Virus record (IMG/VR): IMGVR_UViG_3300028603_000017
Coordinates: 32,001-96,000 of that record
Reading direction: 5' to 3' (one strand)
Length of the DNA: 64,000 nucleotides
From: a virus
Lineage: Duplodnaviria; Caudoviricetes
Both the position numbers and the translations under genes were made by a program. This document shows, piece after piece, positions 27,256 to 39,210 of this stretch; within the stretch, counting starts at the first letter, position 1, and each line of letters opens with the position of its first letter. Below the pieces are notes generated by a model, which was not told where the DNA came from, made no database searches, and worked only from the letters and a program-made list of their open reading frames with translations.

Positions 27256-27867
27256 ATGACGTTATCTAAGCCAGTAGGTTCTAGTGTTGATATGTCAGTA
27301 CCTAGCCATGAATATATCTTCAAACGTATGTTCATGTGTGTTGTCTCTCAAATGGATATCACCAGTAAAGAATACCTAAAGAAATTTGGTATGCCTACTA
27401 CTGGTGATCCCAATATTGACAGAGAGATGGCAAATCAACTCATTACAACATACAAAACCATAGCTGATATGGTGGATCTATTCAGACAAGGCGTTACAGT
27501 CAGAGTGCCAAAACAACAAGACTGTAAAACTATATATGAGTACGTAGACTACCACATTCAGTCTTGGGCTCAAGCTATTCAAAATGGATTAAATCTAGGT
27601 AATGCTCCGTTAGAAGACTTAATAGAGATGGATAAGTTTGCTACCAAACTGTATCCGTATGCTCTAGATAATAAGCTCATTATGGAAAACTCTTCTGTAT
27701 TTGTTCAGCAATTAGGTAACAATTTCATTACCCACGATAATGTATTGGGTTCTATGAAGTCACCTACACGCATATTAGAAGAATCTGGTCTAGATGAAAA
27801 TGGACAATTGCCTCAAAGAGAGTCTTATGCTGATATCTTTATCAAAAGAGGTAAAGGATGGAAATAG
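27256..27867 (+). CDS. Conserved phage protein (phiKZ gp100-like)
   Basis: FG.PTTG, TIADMV...G and APLEDL...DKFA motifs; synteny. Confidence 0.6.
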   Translation: MTLSKPVGSSVDMSVPSHEYIFKRMFMCVVSQMDITSKEYLKKFGMPTTGDPNIDREMANQLITTYKTIADMVDLFRQGVTVRVPKQQDCKTIYEYVDYHIQSWAQAIQNGLNLGNAPLEDLIEMDKFATKLYPYALDNKLIMENSSVFVQQLGNNFITHDNVLGSMKSPTRILEESGLDENGQLPQRESYADIFIKRGKGWK

Positions 27868-29291
27868 AATCTACTGCCTTATTTCAAGAGATAAAAGCTA
27901 TTATCGATGATGGGCCTAAACCTGTTAACTATTACTATAAATGCTATTTTCTTATTGATGATAAGAAATATGAGCCTTTAAAGATTATTGATGTATTTCA
28001 TAAACGGAACTATGTTGAAGCTAGAGGTGATGAGAGATTCATCACCCTAGCTATTCCTATGGGTTTATGGTCTAAGATTATTTATCCAAAGCTCAATATT
28101 TTGGATATTACTTTGGTTAAAATACCTATTTATGAAATTGATGATAAAGAAAATCAAGAAGAAGAAATAGAAGAGATCAGATACACAGCTATTCCTGTAC
28201 CAGATTCAATACCTAATTTAACAGGTGATAATCTACAGAGATTCAGCATTGCTGCTTTGGATACCATGGACTTCTTTGAAGTTACATTTCAATTGGTAGA
28301 TAAAGGCTTAGAAGCATTAAAGATGGTCACAGTAGGTTCTGTTTTTAGACGTTGTAAAACAGAGGATGTTGTCAAAGGTATTTTAGCTAAAGAAAGATCT
28401 AAAGCCAAAACCATTACAGGAAAAGCTGTTGAAACGATTGATATGGTAGATGGCGATAATGATGATGAAATAGAGCATGTATTGATTCCTCAAGGCTTAC
28501 CCTATCTAGACGTACCTTTTTATGTGCAACAGCAATGTAATGGTGTTTATAATGCTGGAATGAATATCTATTATCAAAATAAAGGATTATTTGTTTATCC
28601 CCCATTTGATACAACCAGATATGATTCTGCTGATTTAAAAGCTACTATATTGAAAGTGCCTAAATACTCCTATTCGTATTTAGAAAGAACATACAGACAA
28701 GAAGGCGATATTGTTTATATCATAGGCACCAGTGATTCTAGTTTCGAAGATAAGTCATTTATCAATTCTAGAAATAGAGGTGACGGTATTCGCTTTGGCG
28801 ATGCTCGCTTTATCATGCGAGATGAATTGCTAGAGACCAAGGACAATAAAACCAAAATCGTTAGAAAAGACGTTAACCAAGAGTTTGTATCCAAAGATAA
28901 AAGTGATCAACCTGATTACCGTCAACAACTTTATGTTCCTTTATCTAAAGAACATATGAATGCCAATCCGTTTGTACAAAGATCCAGACTAGCACATATT
29001 AACGGTGCTATGTATCAAATTGATTGGCAAAACTCAAACCCTGATGTACTCATACCTGGAATGATGGTAAAGATCATTTATATGAGTAAACATGAATTTA
29101 GAGAACTGTATGGTGTATTAACACATGTAGTTACAAACACTCAGTTGTCTGGACAGGGTTTAAATTATACTAGACACATCACTAACTCATCTTTATTCAT
29201 ATTCAGCACTATGCTCACTGAGCAAGAGCAAGAATTTGATGAGATAGACGAAAGTGTTATAACTGCTTGGGAAAATTATGAAATGGGCTAG
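27858..29291 (+). CDS. Tail/baseplate hub-like structural protein (phiKZ gp101-like)
   Basis: IPQG...DVP.Y.Q...GVY..G...YYQ, ERTY and W.NS.PD.L.PGM motifs; synteny. Confidence 0.65.
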   Translation: MEIESTALFQEIKAIIDDGPKPVNYYYKCYFLIDDKKYEPLKIIDVFHKRNYVEARGDERFITLAIPMGLWSKIIYPKLNILDITLVKIPIYEIDDKENQEEEIEEIRYTAIPVPDSIPNLTGDNLQRFSIAALDTMDFFEVTFQLVDKGLEALKMVTVGSVFRRCKTEDVVKGILAKERSKAKTITGKAVETIDMVDGDNDDEIEHVLIPQGLPYLDVPFYVQQQCNGVYNAGMNIYYQNKGLFVYPPFDTTRYDSADLKATILKVPKYSYSYLERTYRQEGDIVYIIGTSDSSFEDKSFINSRNRGDGIRFGDARFIMRDELLETKDNKTKIVRKDVNQEFVSKDKSDQPDYRQQLYVPLSKEHMNANPFVQRSRLAHINGAMYQIDWQNSNPDVLIPGMMVKIIYMSKHEFRELYGVLTHVVTNTQLSGQGLNYTRHITNSSLFIFSTMLTEQEQEFDEIDESVITAWENYEMG

Positions 29292-29607
29292 CAATATCAT
29301 CCATCGATTTATCAAATGGCTTATTTCTTTATTCTTTAAACGAAATCATAAGTACGGTGTTAGTTTTGATGTTGATATCAATTTAAGTAACCTAATGTCA
29401 CCATTACCAAATGTAAATACATTTTACGATTTGGCTAGAGATGTTGGTATCTTTGAAGTGGTTGATGTTGATGCTAAAGAATCTATTGTAGTTATTAGAG
29501 AAGTAGGTACTGATACAGAATATAAAATAGATTCTGAGTTATTTATTATTCTGTTTGTTTCTAAGAGTGATGCCAGCTCTAATTTTGATTTATTAAAATA
29601 TAAATAG
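29278..29607 (+). CDS. Hypothetical protein
   Basis: 109 aa; overlaps the upstream stop and ends at a hairpin. Confidence 0.65.
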   Translation: MKWASNIIHRFIKWLISLFFKRNHKYGVSFDVDINLSNLMSPLPNVNTFYDLARDVGIFEVVDVDAKESIVVIREVGTDTEYKIDSELFIILFVSKSDASSNFDLLKYK

Positions 29608-29609
29608 CA

Positions 29610-29649
29610 CATACTCCCAGTAGGTATTAACCTACTGGGAGCTATGCCG
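29610..29649. terminator. CATA/TATG-family hairpin (copy 9)
   Basis: cata-ctcccagtaggt/acctactgggag-c-tatgccg. Confidence 0.8.
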
Positions 29650-29669
29650 TTAAAAAGTAGATTCAAAAA

Positions 29670-29697
29670 TATTTCAGTCACATATTGTAAACGTGAA
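29670..29697 (+). promoter_or_regulatory. Putative early (virion-RNAP) promoter
   Basis: tatttcagtcacatattgtaaacgtgaa aligns without gaps to 39313-39340; resembles the phiKZ early TATATTAC element. Confidence 0.6.
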
Positions 29698-29745
29698 TAG
29701 GAATACATATCTTCCGAAATCAACTCTTTAACCTGGAGAAAACAA

Positions 29746-29865
29746 ATGCAAGCCATCAAGAATTGGGGCAACAAGTTTGCCAAGCTGCCCATCGACAAAC
29801 AAGTCATTCTGGTTTGCGGCATCGCTTGTGCTGCTGGCTATCTCATCAATTCCATCAAGCGCTAA
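29746..29865 (+). CDS. 39-aa single-pass membrane microprotein (not in ORF track)
   Basis: RBS ggag; MQAIKNWGNKFAKLPIDKQVILVCGIACAAGYLINSIKR; C-ending codons. Confidence 0.7.
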   Translation: MQAIKNWGNKFAKLPIDKQVILVCGIACAAGYLINSIKR

Positions 29866-29896
29866 TCTAGCGCTCGACTCAAAAAGGAAAAAAACC

Positions 29897-30085
29897 ATGA
29901 ACTACGAAAACATGACCGACGAAGAAATCGCTGCGGACACTGCTGCGAAGCTGGAGTACTGCGATCCCAAAAAGAACAAGAACTGGAACCGTGCTCTGTT
30001 CTGTGTTCGTATGCTCGCTGACGCTAACATCTACCTGGCTTGCGTCAGCTTGGGCATCACGCTGCACAAGGTCATCAAAGGCTAA
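29897..30085 (+). CDS. 62-aa protein with a hydrophobic C-terminus
   Basis: RBS aagga; MNYENMTDEEIAA...NIYLACVSLGITLHKVIKG. Confidence 0.7.
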   Translation: MNYENMTDEEIAADTAAKLEYCDPKKNKNWNRALFCVRMLADANIYLACVSLGITLHKVIKG

Positions 30086-30123
30086 GTCTACCCACATCAA
30101 TCAAACCTCTGAAAGAAACTACC

Positions 30124-30279
30124 ATGACCCGTGAACAACTCATTAACGTAAACAAGATCGCCACCAATCAAGCTAAGAACCTCAAGACCAAGAAGAAAAT
30201 CATCGTCCTCTATGGCGCGGTGGCTTTGGCCACCACCAGCGTGCTGACTTTCTTGATCTACAAGGATTTGAAGAGCTGA
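30124..30279 (+). CDS. 51-aa tail-anchored membrane microprotein
   Basis: Leader gaaagaaactaccATG; KKKIIVLYGAVALATTSVLTFLIYKDLKS. Confidence 0.7.
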   Translation: MTREQLINVNKIATNQAKNLKTKKKIIVLYGAVALATTSVLTFLIYKDLKS

Positions 30280-30376
30280 ATCTCTCACCGTGAGCAAGAC
30301 CAAGTCTCACGGTGATTGGAATACCAATCCAACCATCGTGGGATTTACTTCCCAAAACAATTCTAGGAGAACTACC

Positions 30377-30520
30377 ATGTTTGAACAACGTCCCTTTGAG
30401 ATCCTCTTGACCTACTTGGCCGCCATGGCCATCGGCTCCATCGCTACCGTGGGTTTCCGCTCTTACGTGGACTGGAAAATAAAGCAAGCCAAAAAGGATT
30501 GCAATGAGCAAAAAGTCTAA
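30377..30520 (+). CDS. 47-aa single-pass membrane microprotein
   Basis: RBS aggag; MFEQRPFEILLTYLAAMAIGSIATVGFRSYVDWKIK... Confidence 0.7.
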   Translation: MFEQRPFEILLTYLAAMAIGSIATVGFRSYVDWKIKQAKKDCNEQKV

Positions 30521-31538
30521 CACAACCAATGCTCGTAAGTTCTATCGTCGTCGCCAAATTTTGAAAGAGGAGCTCGAAATGGCAAAGAAAAACTGCAAGA
30601 AGCAAGCGATCAAAGGGTTTTCGCAACTGGAGAGCATGAATTTGCAGTCCATGCTTGCTGAAAAGCAGATCGCTGAAAACGGAGCTGACAACTTCGAATT
30701 CATTGCTGAGTGCGATGGAGTGCGTGCGAGCTTTTCGATCAATATTCCGATCGACAAAAATAAGCCCTTTCCAGAGGATCTTCTTCGGGAAGTGGTAACC
30801 TATGGTGTTTGCTGCAAAGACAGCGAATTCCATCTGATGGAAACGATGCTCAAGAGCATCGACCACAGTGGTGTGCAAACCATGGTTCAGAATTTCGTGA
30901 TGTATGCCAACGACATGCGTAAGGAGTTCGAGAGTATGGAATGCTCGAAATCCCAAACGATCGAGTCCTTGGATCAATTGAACGAAAAGCTGAAGGATCT
31001 CGCACCCAACTCCATCTACATCGCCCAGCGCAATAAGCGCCAAAACCAAACTCAACCCAACCAGGAGCTCAACATGGAAAACCAAACCCAACAACCCCAA
31101 GTCGAAGAAATCCAAGCCACCGCAGCCGAGGCTGGTGAGCCGGTCACCCAAACCGTGAGCACCGAAGAAGCTGCAACCACCAATCCCCAACCCGAAACCA
31201 CCATCATCAAGGAAGAAACCATGACCGACAACGTCAACCAGACCATCAACGAAGCTGCCGCTGCTGCTTACAATGCTGCCAAGGCTGCTGCTGACGCCGC
31301 CAGCTCCGCTGCCGATACGACCAAGGAAACCACCAACAAGACCAAAGCCGTTACCACAAAGGCTGCCAAAGAAACCAAGGGCTTCTTCGCTCGCCACCAA
31401 AAGAAGCTCTACATCGGTCTGGGTCTGATCGGTCTGGGCGGCGCTGCCTACTTCGGCTGGAAGAAGTTCGGCAGCTTGATCGATGCGGGTGAAACCGCTG
31501 TCGAAGTGGTGGTCGATACCGCTGGTGCTGGCAGCTAA
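30504..31538 (+). CDS. Membrane-anchored protein with probable internal starts at 31074 and 31221
   Basis: C-terminal TM KKLYIGLGLIGLGGAAYFGWKK; in-frame ATGs preceded by aggag and aaggaa RBSs. Confidence 0.7.
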   Translation: MSKKSNTTNARKFYRRRQILKEELEMAKKNCKKQAIKGFSQLESMNLQSMLAEKQIAENGADNFEFIAECDGVRASFSINIPIDKNKPFPEDLLREVVTYGVCCKDSEFHLMETMLKSIDHSGVQTMVQNFVMYANDMRKEFESMECSKSQTIESLDQLNEKLKDLAPNSIYIAQRNKRQNQTQPNQELNMENQTQQPQVEEIQATAAEAGEPVTQTVSTEEAATTNPQPETTIIKEETMTDNVNQTINEAAAAAYNAAKAAADAASSAADTTKETTNKTKAVTTKAAKETKGFFARHQKKLYIGLGLIGLGGAAYFGWKKFGSLIDAGETAVEVVVDTAGAGS

Positions 31539-31578
31539 CCAACCCCAATTTATCTAGCTAACAACTCTAGATAGATTA

Positions 31579-31642
31579 ACATATATACAGCAGGAGTTCC
31601 TTTGAACTCCTGCTGTGTTATATGAATTATCTTTTTTTTTTG
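31579..31642 (+). terminator. CATA/TATG-family hairpin (copy 10) with T-tract, closing the early island
   Basis: acatata-t-acagcaggagttc/gaactcctgctgt-gt-tatatg, then a T10 run. Confidence 0.8.
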
Positions 31643-31694
31643 TTTATTTTCACTTACACACTATGCGATTATCTGATGTCTTAATATTCAAAAA

Positions 31695-31841
31695 GTGTGT
31701 CACTTCTTTGTGAGAGATGGTAAAATCGAATACTGTAGTGATAGTATTCATGATCTAAAAGGTAAAACTGTAGATATGGTACAAAAGTATAAATATTATA
31801 GTTTAGGACAGGGTGGGCTCCCCTGTCTTCTATTATCATAA
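31695..31841 (+). pseudogene. C-terminal remnant resembling DUF6527-type small Cys/His proteins
   Basis: VCHFFVRDGKIEYCSDSIHDLKGKTVDM fits the recalled pattern CH.FV.DG.I....D..H.L.G.TV.L; the N-terminal half is missing (stop upstream). Confidence 0.5.
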
Positions 31842-31866
31842 TGGGTGTGGAAACAAGGTAACCAAA

Positions 31867-33093
31867 ATGAGTTTTGCTAAACGATTTAATCTAGCTGCCG
31901 CTTTAGAACAAGTTACAGCTGAGTGTGATCCTGCTGAAGTCTTTGAAGATAACATTGATGCAGGTCTGGATGATCTAGAAGAACTACAAGAAAGCGTTGA
32001 GTTTTCTGTAGATGAAATAGGTAAAGGTCTAGAAGGTATTGCTGACCTAATTGGTCTATCCAATAAGCTCCAAAACAAAGAAGGTTGTGGTGTTGCTATT
32101 GAGAGCTATAGTGATATGGCCAATATTGCTTATGCTTCTATTCTAAAGCGTATTGGTTTAGAAGACGGTGAAATCTTTGACAAAGATGATCCTACTGGTA
32201 AAGATGCTAAAGATATTACTCCTAAGCCTAGTGGTAAGATCAAGCAAATGGTAGAAAAGATCATTGAGATCGTTAAGCGTATTTGGGAAAAAGCTAAAGA
32301 ATATTTTAAGAAAGCTTTTGACTATGTCAGCAATAGAATCAATAAAACGATTAAGTATTTAGAAGATCTTAATGATTCTGCAAAGATTGCTGTTTTAAAA
32401 GCTGCTAGTATTCCCAATATTGAGATTGAGAATCCTGCTTTCTTTACTGATAAGAAATTAATTACAGTCGGTGATGTATTTGAATCGACATACCTAAGTG
32501 ATTATGGTAAGAATTCAGATAAAATTGGTAAACATTTTGAAGCTTATGCATTTGCCAAATCTGTGTACACCCCTGATCAAGCTCAAAATCTCTTAAATAG
32601 GCTAAGTGGTAAAAGAGAAAAAGACGGACTTTATGTTACTCCGGAAGGTTATATTCATATTGAAGAACCATCCGGAGACGATGGTGTAACTAAAATTAGT
32701 TTCTCAAAAAACAAAGAAGAGCAGCCAGTAGCTAAACAAACTCTTGGAATGATTGCTAAATTTCCAGCATCTATTGATATTACATTAGATATCTTTAACT
32801 CGATTCGTAAACGTTATAATGATTTTTATAAAGAAGCTGAGAGAAAAATAAATGAAGAAATTCCTGACTATTTAGCTCTTCTTCAAAGCAATATTAAGAA
32901 TTCTAAAAATGAAGAGGATGCACAAAGATCTATAGACGTAGCTAGACGTATTAAACAAAACTTAACTTATCTAACGTCTATCAGAAATATGCATAACTCT
33001 TATACAGGTGATTTGGTATTCATGATTAACTACTATGTTAGTTTTATTAAAAAAGCTGCGGATGTTAATCAAGCCAAAAAAGCCACAGCTTAA
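31867..33093 (+). CDS. Dispersed phiKZ-like internal head protein paralogue
   Basis: True start MSFAKRFNLAAALE, with 24 bp identical to the start of 21073; VAIES site; IIEIVKRIWEKAKEYF amphipathic helix. Confidence 0.8.
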   Translation: MSFAKRFNLAAALEQVTAECDPAEVFEDNIDAGLDDLEELQESVEFSVDEIGKGLEGIADLIGLSNKLQNKEGCGVAIESYSDMANIAYASILKRIGLEDGEIFDKDDPTGKDAKDITPKPSGKIKQMVEKIIEIVKRIWEKAKEYFKKAFDYVSNRINKTIKYLEDLNDSAKIAVLKAASIPNIEIENPAFFTDKKLITVGDVFESTYLSDYGKNSDKIGKHFEAYAFAKSVYTPDQAQNLLNRLSGKREKDGLYVTPEGYIHIEEPSGDDGVTKISFSKNKEEQPVAKQTLGMIAKFPASIDITLDIFNSIRKRYNDFYKEAERKINEEIPDYLALLQSNIKNSKNEEDAQRSIDVARRIKQNLTYLTSIRNMHNSYTGDLVFMINYYVSFIKKAADVNQAKKATA

Positions 33094-37041: not shown

Positions 37042-39210
37042 ATGCTATTTAACAAAAAGATTAAGGCCGGTGGTCGTCGCTTTGGCCTAGAGGGCATCGT
37101 TACCCAACTGCGTGAACAGCTGGCTGGTCGTGCTCCTGACCGCAAGCTCACCAAGATTGCTCTGGCTACCGAATCCGTTAGCGAGTCAGACGTTAACATG
37201 CTCAATACTGCTGTGGAAGACCTCAAGGTTATTCTGCAAGGTATTGCCAAGGAAAACGTGGAAGAGTTCGGCGCTACTGAAACCGGTGAAGCTGACGTTT
37301 CTGATGCACAGCTCGAAGCTGCTCAAGCTGCTGCTGTGATGGCTGAGGATCCTGAAGCTGTGATGGCTCAGCAATCTGTGGCTGTTCCTGCTAGCAACGA
37401 GTACAACGAAGTCGTGGCTGTTGAGTCTATCGTTTCTGACGGCTTTAGCAAGCGTGCTTTCGCTAAGGAAGCTTATGACGAATCCGCTAACCGCAACGCT
37501 GCTAGCTACTCGGTTGTTTACAACCTGAAGGCTGCTCGTCAAGATGAATTTGGTGAGGCTCTGTTCCCCACCGTGACCGTAACACCCGACAACGTCGGTT
37601 TTGCTGTCTCTATTCGTCTGGTTCAAGTGTATGATGACTTCAAACGTTCCATCACTGGCAACATCGACAAGTACAACATGGTTAACATCGTGCGTGGTTT
37701 CGCCGATCCTACCGTGCTGAAAAACGAACTGACCCGTGCTGTGCCTGTGTATCGCACTGAGTCCGCTCAACACTTCTACAGTGAAGTGCCTGCCGCTGCT
37801 GTGGTGGTTGAAGACGGTGGTGAGAGTGTAAATACTGCTCCTCTAAAGTTTAACAACAACTTCTCGCTGATTGCTCTGTCGCAAACTGACGCTCTGCTGG
37901 CTAACGGTACGATGGATCCTTCTGACTCTATCGATCCGGGTGGTCTGCGTCTGCGTAACGTGTACGCCAAGATTGGTGATAACGTACTTAAGTTCGTCAC
38001 TAAGGATCTGCCCCTGGCAGTATTCCATGCGGCTCCTCAAGGCGTCCATCGCTTGATGAACCTGAACTTCACCACCGATACCATCATGATCAACAAGGAC
38101 ACCACCCGTTACAACGGTGCTGCTCTGGATGGTGCGCTGGCTGGTGTGGTCTCTGGTGATTATATCGTACGCGTAGCTATCAGCGTGACTGGTAACATTG
38201 ATGTCCAAAAGGGTGATACTCATCTGATGGCTAGCGGCATCCGTGTGGTTCAAGTGCAAGACGAAGACGGTGTGGTTGTTGACCATACTGTTGCTGGTGC
38301 TGCTAAGACCCTGGCTGACGCTATCGAAGGTGGTACTCTGGGTGGTTTTGACCTGATTGCATATCGCGCTAACGCTAACCGTCGTCAGCGTGGTCAGCTG
38401 CTGGACATCCAGTACTTCAACCAACTGTACACCGTGCCTTTCCGTTCACCCATTACTGCTCTGAAGCCTGTCAACTCTGACTCTTCTAGCGAAGCTGGTG
38501 ATCTGGCTGGTCTGATCAGTGCTACCCAAATCCGTACCTCTAACGCTGCTGTGACCCAGCTGCTCGATACTGCGGATACCCTCAAGCGCTTTGTTGATAG
38601 TCGTGAAACCACCCGTGGTCCTGCTATCCTGGGCGTGGCTCGTTACCTGGTCAAGGCTGCTTACCTGGAAGACACGGTGGACGCTGTGGCTGATCTGGAC
38701 TCTCTGACCGCTACCCAACGCGCTCAAGACTTGCAAGCTCTGCTGGTCAACAAAGTGCGTGACATGGCTTTCAGCCTGTGGCGTGATTCCGAGTACCAAG
38801 CTATGGCTACTGTGATGAAGGGTGGCGCTGCTGATACGCCTACCGTAATTATCGCTACCGATCCTGTACTGGCTCGCTACCTGCAAATCGATGGTGATCT
38901 GCGCACTGCTGGTGCTAAGTTTGAAGTTCGTCTGGTGTCCACTCTGGACAACCGTATGAAGGGCAAGATCGCCGTTACCTTCGGTGACTTTACCAACACC
39001 AACGAACCCAATCCTCTGCACTTCGGTAACATGGCGTGGAAGCCTGAGCTGACCCTGAATCTGCCTATCTCTCGTGGTGGTCAGATCTCCAAGGAACTGA
39101 CTGTTCAGCCTGCGTTCCTGCACATCACCAACCTGCCTATCCTGGGTATGATTGAGGTGAGCAACGTGAGCGAAGTCATTGCTTCTAAGGTCGACGTTAA
39201 CGTTGGTTAA
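37042..39210 (+). CDS. Major capsid protein (phiKZ gp120-like)
   Basis: 722 aa; YNLKAARQDEFGEALFPT, N.N.RQRGQLLD, VIIATDP.L.RYL and NPLHFGNM motifs; propeptide with AxE sites; strong codon bias. Confidence 0.95.
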   Translation: MLFNKKIKAGGRRFGLEGIVTQLREQLAGRAPDRKLTKIALATESVSESDVNMLNTAVEDLKVILQGIAKENVEEFGATETGEADVSDAQLEAAQAAAVMAEDPEAVMAQQSVAVPASNEYNEVVAVESIVSDGFSKRAFAKEAYDESANRNAASYSVVYNLKAARQDEFGEALFPTVTVTPDNVGFAVSIRLVQVYDDFKRSITGNIDKYNMVNIVRGFADPTVLKNELTRAVPVYRTESAQHFYSEVPAAAVVVEDGGESVNTAPLKFNNNFSLIALSQTDALLANGTMDPSDSIDPGGLRLRNVYAKIGDNVLKFVTKDLPLAVFHAAPQGVHRLMNLNFTTDTIMINKDTTRYNGAALDGALAGVVSGDYIVRVAISVTGNIDVQKGDTHLMASGIRVVQVQDEDGVVVDHTVAGAAKTLADAIEGGTLGGFDLIAYRANANRRQRGQLLDIQYFNQLYTVPFRSPITALKPVNSDSSSEAGDLAGLISATQIRTSNAAVTQLLDTADTLKRFVDSRETTRGPAILGVARYLVKAAYLEDTVDAVADLDSLTATQRAQDLQALLVNKVRDMAFSLWRDSEYQAMATVMKGGAADTPTVIIATDPVLARYLQIDGDLRTAGAKFEVRLVSTLDNRMKGKIAVTFGDFTNTNEPNPLHFGNMAWKPELTLNLPISRGGQISKELTVQPAFLHITNLPILGMIEVSNVSEVIASKVDVNVG

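Follow-up and report, generated by a model that had tools for sequence, protein, structure and literature searches.

Why five genes should stand between two hairpins in a composition so unlike that of their surroundings, and what their products might do, is the question raised by positions 29,670 to 31,642 of the DNA analyzed here, a 64,000-nucleotide stretch (hereafter, the window) that corresponds to positions 32001-96000 of a 261,198-bp virus record rated 95% complete (IMG/VR record IMGVR_UViG_3300028603_000017; Duplodnaviria, Caudoviricetes). The genome encodes a phiKZ-type major head protein (MCP; window 37042-39210, phrog_3231, E 1e-170), the nuclear-shell protein chimallin (genome 167554-169440, phrog_4795, E 3e-77) and also head-tail joining and phiKZ internal head proteins, while the gene directly upstream of the five (27858-29291) is a homologue of phiKZ gp101 and 201phi2-1 gp164, with about 28-34% identity to its best cultured relatives. 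Hence, the virus is a divergent, uncultured, nucleus-forming jumbo phage, and the chimallin gene bears out the Chimalliviridae setting assumed in the original prediction, which had been made from the letters of the DNA alone. At the DNA level, megablast and blastn searches against 50,697 phage records found no similarity. Our collective results indicate with high confidence that the locus is a real, conserved operon of membrane-type proteins (Table 1), and they make it probable, to judge from features of the sequence, that this operon is expressed early and strongly.

Table 1. Features of the operon and its borders (window coordinates). KD, best 19-aa Kyte-Doolittle window; TM, transmembrane.
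Feature	Position	Strand	Description
Upstream boundary hairpin	29608-29646		perfect 12-bp upper stem 29614-29625 / 29630-29641; family CATAC..CTCC / GGAG..CTATG
Promoter-type motif	29650-29705	+	ATTCAAAAATATTTCA-N5-CATATTGTAA-N4-GAATAGGAA; core ATATTGTAA at 29682-29690
ORF1	29746-29865	+	39 aa; basic N-terminus, C-terminal hydrophobic helix ending in KR; KD 1.82
ORF2	29897-30085	+	62 aa; acidic N-terminus, marginal C-terminal helix with Arg and Asp inside; KD 1.56
ORF3	30124-30279	+	51 aa; Lys-rich N-terminus, predicted C-terminal TM helix; KD 2.13
Intercistronic RNA element (ORF3/ORF4)	30285-30346	+	hairpin A 30285-30294 / 30306-30315; hairpin B 30302-30346 (18 bp)
ORF4	30377-30520	+	47 aa; 8-residue N-terminus with QRPxE, predicted TM helix, basic C-tail; KD 1.93
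ORF5	30504-31538	+	344 aa; Gly-rich 18-residue hydrophobic stretch; KD 1.09
Putative ORF5 internal start	31063-31076	+	AGGAG 31063-31067, ATG of Met191 31074-31076
Operon terminator	31579-31641	+	perfect 13-bp stem 31587-31599 / 31604-31616, CATA..TATG arms, 10 T at 31632-31641

The five genes proposed in the original prediction (39, 62, 51, 47 and 344 aa) proved to be real, with frames open in six lineages and purifying selection on ORF1, ORF4 and ORF5. It had also noticed that the first gene is missed and three others are mis-started in the ORF track, and this is the case: the default list omits ORF1 and starts ORF2-4 at upstream TTG or GTG codons. All five ORFs have an ATG start behind a purine-rich box, and gene calls on relatives give 39, 60, 52 and 47 aa for the small ORFs. 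Each product contains one hydrophobic helix, as had been claimed, with ORF2 and ORF5 as the weak cases; all TM calls were made by hydropathy only. Since a KD of at least 1.5 is reached by only 24% of the phage ORFs of at least 80 aa, four adjacent short ORFs are unlikely to do so by chance. ORF1, ORF2, ORF3 and ORF5 have polar N-termini and a helix whose end is 2-25 residues short of the C-terminus, the arrangement of tail-anchored proteins, and from the flanking charges these four are predicted to keep their N-termini in the cytoplasm with few residues outside. ORF4 is predicted, likewise from its flanking charges, to have the opposite orientation (N-out, C-in), with its eight QRPxE-containing residues outside and its basic tail inside. 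ORF4 overlaps the start of ORF5 by 17 nt, and an overlap is found in five of the six lineages (it is kept in L013, L018, L021 and L023), which suggests coupled translation. The unstructured, A/C-rich leaders described for most of the genes were confirmed in composition (A+C 0.60-0.72) and only in part in structure, as folding is below the expectation from GC content for ORF2-4 (z +1.3 to +1.9), whereas the leaders of ORF1 and ORF5 are ordinary.

Three further candidates at the locus were rejected. A reading of ORF1 as a lipoprotein (VCGIAC) fails, since it lacks a canonical lipobox and too few hydrophobic residues precede the Cys; the 318-aa antisense frame at 30444-31400 is a shadow frame, broken in L018 and L021; and the upstream GTG extension of ORF4 is not coding, that stretch being a covarying hairpin.

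The operon has few relatives. Searches with ORF5 found two close relatives in a collection of 5.8 billion proteins and five more distant ones among 1.84 billion representative proteins, the latter set giving only seven matches; the ORF5 homologues are labelled P0002-P0009. The homologues whose context was read, all but the one on L022 (a contig too short for a judgment) and P0009, are carried by phiKZ-like contigs. Sequencing runs SRR29823655, SRR30104876, SRR33233608, SRR28678185 and SRR28403175 yielded contigs of this clade. A tblastn search of 50,697 phage records with ORF5 found no homologue, and scans of IMG/VR and JGI metagenomes with ORF5 patterns, as well as a scan of IMG/VR with the gp101 homologue, found no further loci. 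The alignments, of 6-9 sequences, are shallow. At least six related phage lineages from metagenomes carry the operon in this slot, all six that were found among them, and the relatives share the gene order of the window: gp101 homologue, 109-aa gene, small ORFs, ORF5 homologue, DUF6527 gene and internal head protein, followed by a divergent DnaB helicase on the opposite strand, a roughly 200-aa gene and MCP.

Within this slot the genes evolve very differently. ORF1 homologues from six lineages share 38-82% identity, with a ratio of nonsynonymous to synonymous substitution rates (dN/dS) of 0.06-0.21, and ORF4 homologues, also from six lineages, share 34-98% identity, 11 invariant residues and an invariant QRPxE..Y..A...G pattern, with a dN/dS of 0.10-0.25; for ORF5 the ratio is 0.24-0.40. 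Against L018, whose gp101 homologue differs by a synonymous divergence (dS) of about 1.2, the ratios are 0.06 for ORF1, 0.10 for ORF4 and 0.25 for ORF5. ORF2 is 42-43% identical to its counterparts in L013 and L018 (dN/dS 0.48-0.79) and is replaced in L021 and L024 by unrelated short peptides, while ORF3 is 30-40% identical to its relatives (dN/dS 0.64-1.35); in the related phages, a variable set of short one-helix peptides lies between ORF1 and ORF4. Thus, the ratios and identities point to a conserved core of ORF1, ORF4 and ORF5 under purifying selection, and to ORF2 and ORF3 slots that evolve fast and are exchanged by recombination.

The largest member of this core, ORF5, is made up as follows. 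Residues 55-175, approximately, form a predicted cytoplasmic alpha/beta domain (a beta-hairpin and helices, with a core of ~120 residues and partly conserved Cys); a disordered, Q/N/T/E-rich linker follows, whose length differs by more than 50 residues between close relatives; and the C-terminal third consists of an Ala/Lys/Thr-rich helix, a juxtamembrane GFFARHxKK motif, a predicted Gly-zipper TM segment (residues 302-320, nt 31407-31463) and a short acidic tail. An AlphaFold2 model of the full-length protein was unusable (pLDDT 45), and a model of the N-domain built from eight sequences reached a pLDDT of 63 (70-81 in the core). Foldseek searches of PDB and BFVD with the latter were without a match (best E values 0.06 and 0.014, respectively; TM-score below 0.27), a PDB sequence-profile search found nothing, and a protein atlas look-up returned no usable match. 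The C-terminal third resembles E. coli ElaB, YqjD and YgaM (DUF883) in joining a helical cytoplasmic part to a single C-terminal TM anchor, although ORF5 adds the alpha/beta domain and the disordered linker. DUF883 (PF05957) is absent among the listed Pfam matches of the eight ORF5 family members at E up to 1, which include only sub-threshold, low-complexity hits to ApoO and Mitofilin.

Met191 and Glu188 are invariant in eight ORF5 homologues (26-34% identity) within the otherwise unconserved linker, and an AGGAG, GGAG or AAGG box precedes the Met191 ATG in all five of the available DNAs. This suggests an internal start that would yield a 154-aa, anchor-only isoform of ORF5. In two other lineages anchor-only genes stand free (P0009, 82 aa; L024 4345-4551, 68 aa). 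One ORF5 homologue, P0005 (L022 66-1052), deserves a separate remark: its recorded protein requires TGA to be read as Trp, and its C-terminus overruns the usual end of the family, which is probably a read-through by the gene caller and not the mark of a recoded phage.

Between ORF3 and ORF4, the transcript can form two hairpins that compete for the same middle segment. In six lineages, 97% of cells in hairpin B are paired and compensatory changes occur at 9 of its 18 pairs; none of 500 shuffles was as good, and registers slid along the alignment were only 30-46% paired. Predicted folding energies in the six lineages range from -13 to -24 kcal/mol for B and from -9 to -20 kcal/mol for A; the z-score of the element is -2.67. 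The 5' arm of hairpin A starts 6 nt after the ORF3 stop codon, so that a terminating ribosome would cover it. The element is thus laid out like a translation-sensitive switch or a processing site, a candidate function suggested by its arrangement; an Rfam scan of 29400-31900 found no credible match. Together with the conserved internal start of ORF5, this covarying element is a subject of study in itself.

The upstream hairpin belongs to a family with about 25 intergenic copies across the genome, in which the base is conserved and the upper stem covaries (GGAGCTATG occurs 21 times between genes and once in a coding sequence), and it probably ends the preceding late structural unit. At the other end, the upper stem of the terminator shows compensatory changes in L013 and L018 (TTC..GAA versus ACC..GGT), and the T run is conserved.

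The element that follows the upstream hairpin, and which the original prediction had called a putative early promoter, turned out to be a member of a genuine promoter-type family. With a weight matrix built from five related sequences within the genome and a threshold of 12 bits, we count 11 copies of the motif (about 56 nt) in the genome, five strong (50-68 bits) and six weaker (12-24 bits), all of them intergenic and on the + strand, against a maximum of 3.3 bits in the shuffled genome. One copy lies 78 nt upstream of the chimallin gene, and a strong copy (core at genome 205640) precedes a 112-aa PF08960 protein (genome 205699-206037, GC at third codon positions, GC3, 0.58) of the STIV B116/DUF1874, AcrIII-1 ring-nuclease family (E 1.5e-12, 47.9 bits, cut-off 26). 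Several other units led by the motif are runs of small soluble proteins, and their promoter-proximal genes have a raised GC3 (0.48-0.65), which counts in favor of the explanation given below. Over the 100 nt ahead of ORF1, identity to L013 is ~90%, though silent sites in the adjacent coding DNA are saturated. The motif is conserved in L013, and hairpin and motif also stand before the operon of the distant relative L023, whose ORF5 shares only 27% identity. A sigma-70 consensus scan of the motif found no host-type promoter match. Jumbo phages that encode their own RNA polymerase (RNAP) each have a conserved, AT-rich early-operon motif of ~10 nt near -10 (PMC7598289), and the chimallin gene of phiKZ (gp54) carries an early promoter motif (PMC8244752). 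The motif described here is likewise recurrent and AT-rich, with a copy ahead of chimallin. Since its class is shared with chimallin and an AcrIII-1-like gene, it is most likely read by the injected virion RNAP; we infer that the element is the phage's early promoter, with a transcription start predicted near 29695-29700. As a separate observation, a short stem-loop, of a different sequence in each case, begins some 10-20 nt or less behind every strong copy (genome 26994-27040, 205649-205695 and 211660-211700; window 29700-29715; arms GGAAACA/TGTTTCT, GGGAAT/ATTCCC and GGAA/TTCC), and these may be 5'-terminal hairpins of the transcripts.

Between the perfect hairpins at 29614-29641 and 31587-31616, the composition switches abruptly, as had been described: GC content rises from about 0.32 outside to 0.45-0.58 within 29750-31550. 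The segment 29746-31538 is the most codon-deviant stretch of the genome, with a GC3 of 0.63-0.73 in the five ORFs (0.65-0.73 in the four small ones) against a genome mean of 0.31, and two island ORFs rank first and second (GC3 0.63) among the 259 ORFs of at least 80 aa (mean 0.31, sd 0.087). The other large high-GC3 genes in the genome are those of MCP (0.52) and chimallin (0.53), and the codon shift of the island relative to the rest of the genome correlates with that of MCP plus chimallin (r=0.79). The island shuns AGA/AGG, TTA, CTA, ATA and ACA (usage of AGA/AGG 0, TTA 0, ATA 0.03, ACA 0.05), favors CGT/CGC, CTG, ATC, AAC, ACC, AAG, TTC and TAC, and keeps GAA and CAA. Three tRNAs from the five-member phage cluster (genome 223521-225108; Arg-TCT, Leu-TAA, Met-CAT, Asn-GTT and Thr-TGT), namely Arg-TCT, Leu-TAA and Thr-TGT, read AGA, TTA and ACA, which are in heavy use through most of the genome and are avoided in the island. 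MCP and chimallin avoid the same three codons.

The phage tRNAs of phiKZ disappear if nucleus formation is prevented, consistent with their being transcribed by the later, non-virion polymerase (PMC12571901). In the phage studied here, too, the tRNAs are probably made later than the island products. That the island shuns the codons read by such later-made tRNAs suggests that these codons are poorly served by the host, and its mRNA would accordingly appear to be written for translation before the phage tRNAs exist. In this sense, the avoidance of phage-tRNA codons lends indirect support to the "host-like" codon usage of the original prediction. The genome would thus offer a clean case of codon partitioning, in which phage-tRNA codons are avoided both in the probable early genes and in those of the two most abundant proteins. 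The same bias is seen in the relatives (GC3 0.61-0.80 in L013 and L018; GC islands in L021, L023 and L024) and is kept across those whose flanking gene differs by a dS of about 1.2; such high GC3 throughout the relatives argues against a recent, un-ameliorated import.

Putting these observations together, we favor the following explanation, which, its final step on the role left out, we regard as evenly balanced between right and wrong. A hairpin would close the late structural genes, the ~56-nt promoter-type motif would drive the five cistrons, and a stem with a T-run would end the unit. The motif would be read by the injected virion RNAP at the start of infection, and the mRNA, using the codons of the phage's most expressed genes, would be suited to immediate, heavy translation by an unmodified host. 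The products would be bitopic membrane proteins, with ORF1, ORF2, ORF3 and ORF5 tail-anchored and ORF4 in the opposite topology. We tentatively propose, as an idea somewhat short of even probability, that ORF1, ORF4 and ORF5 assemble via their TM helices into an inner-membrane complex, which would hold the cytoplasmic domain of ORF5 on a long, flexible tether, while the anchor-only isoform of ORF5 and the fast-evolving ORF2 and ORF3 peptides might tune it. Its most likely task would be to change or protect the cytoplasmic membrane of the host as soon as the DNA has been injected, possibly by excluding further injections or by neutralizing membrane-acting abortive-infection effectors, although we consider a role in exclusion or anti-defense rather doubtful. 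The fast-evolving accessory peptides, the restriction to one clade, the variable slot that in phiKZ and 201phi2-1 also harbors small one-helix genes, and the co-regulation with an anti-CRISPR-type gene fit such a role at the host interface better than that of a housekeeping organelle part.

Several observations weigh against this explanation. The chimallin copy of the motif is weak (23.6 bits, compared with 50-68 bits for the strong copies). The upstream hairpin terminates in CTATG (29642-29646) pointing at the operon, and TATG is the core of the phiKZ late promoter, so that a second, late start of the operon is possible. The four-fold codon families end in C in the island (GCC, GGC, CCC, CTC, GTC) and in T in MCP and chimallin, hence expression-linked selection can be only part of the explanation for the codon usage; the C-ending preference makes the island mRNA poor in G (A 0.31, C 0.27, G 0.22, T 0.20). 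Both timing and membrane insertion are read from the DNA and its translations, the latter by hydropathy, with the helices of ORF2 and ORF5 marginal. Finally, no homology to an exclusion, anti-defense or other characterized protein was found in PHROGs, Pfam or NCBIfam: PHROG and Pfam searches with all five proteins at E up to 0.01-0.1 gave no match, including to the T4 Imm and Sp families, and in PHROGs, Pfam and NCBIfam the five proteins and eight ORF5 homologues had only sub-threshold, low-complexity matches.

Known phages provide partial parallels to an early membrane cassette. T4 Imm and Sp are early, small inner-membrane proteins of superinfection exclusion, and fast evolution is to be expected for such genes. 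By description, they match what is predicted for the island products, namely small bitopic membrane proteins that a lytic phage would make early; unlike them, the island is a conserved five-gene operon that includes a 344-aa tethered-domain protein, and there is no homology. The host-takeover module of Bacillus phage SPO1 combines strong early promoters and ribosome-binding sites with many small proteins, among them the membrane protein gp56. It is similar as a cassette of small genes behind strong early promoters, for immediate heavy expression, and differs in its polymerase system, in the lack of homology and in its mostly soluble products. The closest positional parallel is the slot from the gp101 virion protein to the DnaB-like helicase/MCP block in phiKZ (gp102-gp116) and 201phi2-1 (gp165-gp178), which lies on the same strand and contains small one-helix proteins: gp102.1, 103, 106.1, 107 and 108 in phiKZ (106910-110456), and gp166, 169, 170, 171 and 173 in 201phi2-1 (114614-116917). 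Of the phiKZ proteins, gp105 is expressed early and binds ribosomes, and gp108 can be cross-linked to ribosomal protein L29. The slot proteins of both phages have no sequence similarity to the island, and the phiKZ cluster is much larger, encodes mostly soluble proteins and has no visible codon island (GC3 0.21-0.52).

The alternative that survives best, though we consider it unlikely, is the one put first in the original prediction, whose interpretation is partly supported by our results: the operon would encode membrane components for the stage of the early phage infection (EPI) vesicle, with tail-anchored proteins inserting from the cytoplasm into the vesicle membrane, where they might act as channels, hold ribosomes or link the vesicle to the chimallin shell as it forms, so that the genome can be handed over. 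The phage encodes chimallin, the promoter is of the early type, and four of the five proteins are tail-anchored by hydropathy, so post-translational insertion would be possible; ORF5 would present a cytoplasmic domain on a long tether, its Gly-zipper anchor also occurs free-standing, and the phiKZ proteins of the syntenic slot associate with ribosomes. Moreover, a review of nucleus-forming phages lists vesicle formation, vesicle channels, the exchange of nucleotides and mRNA, and the hand-over of the genome to the nucleus as open questions (PMC12908238). However, the family occurs in a single chimallivirus clade, while vesicles are common to all chimalliviruses; the first transcription and export have to proceed without any newly made protein; and the ORF2 and ORF3 slots evolve fast, which would be unusual for a housekeeping organelle part. 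A more elaborate version is improbable: in this vesicle-to-nucleus device, ORF5 would tether the vesicle or inner membrane to ribosomes or to the nascent chimallin shell, its Gly-zipper anchor with ORF1 and ORF4 would constitute a channel or a fusion/rupture device, and the intercistronic two-state hairpin would govern how much of the variable peptides is made relative to ORF4 and ORF5. If true, a role at the vesicle would be the more exciting outcome.

With its early-type promoter, its codons suited to host tRNAs and its single-pass products of no known family, the operon is a candidate for how nucleus-forming jumbo phages deal with the host membrane once injection has taken place. The literature that we searched contained no phage-encoded, early-phase membrane protein of nucleus-forming phages. 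The operon offers a defined, conserved candidate set of probable early genes, all predicted to encode membrane proteins, which could be synthesized and tested in laboratory hosts with no need of the uncultured phage itself.

Two other alternatives are, in our view, very unlikely. The first, a cassette for the timing of lysis whose small membrane proteins would resemble holins and antiholins and in which ORF5 and its short isoform would form a dual-start pair, would account for the succession of small one-helix proteins, for the Gly-zipper TM segment and for a conserved internal start that gives two co-terminal products. The starts of dual-start holins are typically 2-3 codons apart (lambda S105/S107), however, whereas those of ORF5 are separated by 190 codons; there is no adjacent endolysin or spanin gene, the flanks being gp101-type virion and internal head proteins; the promoter class is common to chimallin and an anti-CRISPR gene; and the island avoids the codons decoded by the phage tRNAs.

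The second is a foreign island (a moron), recently acquired from the host or a GC-richer phage and still reflecting the composition of its donor. The sharp compositional borders at the hairpins speak for it, as do the C-ending four-fold preference that MCP and chimallin do not share, the position at a site prone to insertions, where L013, L018 and L021 carry extra genes, and the recombination mosaic between the window and L013. On the other hand, the same high GC3 is seen in every relative found, across a dS of at least 1.2; the island carries the phage's own promoter motif and hairpin family; its codon shift parallels that of the phage's top-expressed genes; and no bacterial homologues are present among the ORF5 matches whose context was read. 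Neither the patchy presence in close relatives nor the homologues in hosts or unrelated elements that characterize a moron were seen. That the four small ORFs are mere chance, untranslated frames in the GC-rich leader of ORF5 is hardly conceivable: they have only 39-62 codons and ORF1 falls below the usual gene-calling limits, but six lineages preserve their frames, lengths and helices, ORF1 and ORF4 differ mostly at third codon positions (dN/dS 0.06-0.25), each ATG lies behind a purine-rich box, and the competing antisense frame is broken in two relatives.

The surroundings of the operon provided some further observations. Its flanks are the gp101-type virion protein and a 109-aa gene without assignment on one side, and a DUF6527 remnant and a phiKZ_IP head protein on the other. 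The segment 27858-30350 of the window is a recombination mosaic with respect to L013 2178-5850: the gp101 homologue is identical between the two (dS 0.007), silent sites are saturated from the 109-aa gene up to and including ORF3, hairpin B, ORF4 and ORF5 are again nearly identical (dS 0.04-0.12), and the internal head protein is only 59% identical. The gap between the 109-aa gene and ORF1 is a hot spot for insertions, which holds an AT-rich 365-aa gene in L013 (4009-5106) and a 93-aa ORF together with a 42-aa ORF with an N-terminal TM segment in L018 (3210-3766), the same 42-aa ORF recurring at L021 2017-2145.

Behind the operon, positions 31663-31841 of the window hold the remnant of a DUF6527/BubE-type gene (PF20137). 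Proteins of this type are serine proteases which, in the Bub operons of bacteria, take off ubiquitin-like conjugates. The whole 115-aa gene is retained right behind the operon in the relatives (L013 7315-7662, E 7e-14), while in the window a clean internal deletion of 211 nt at 31683/31684 has shifted its frame.

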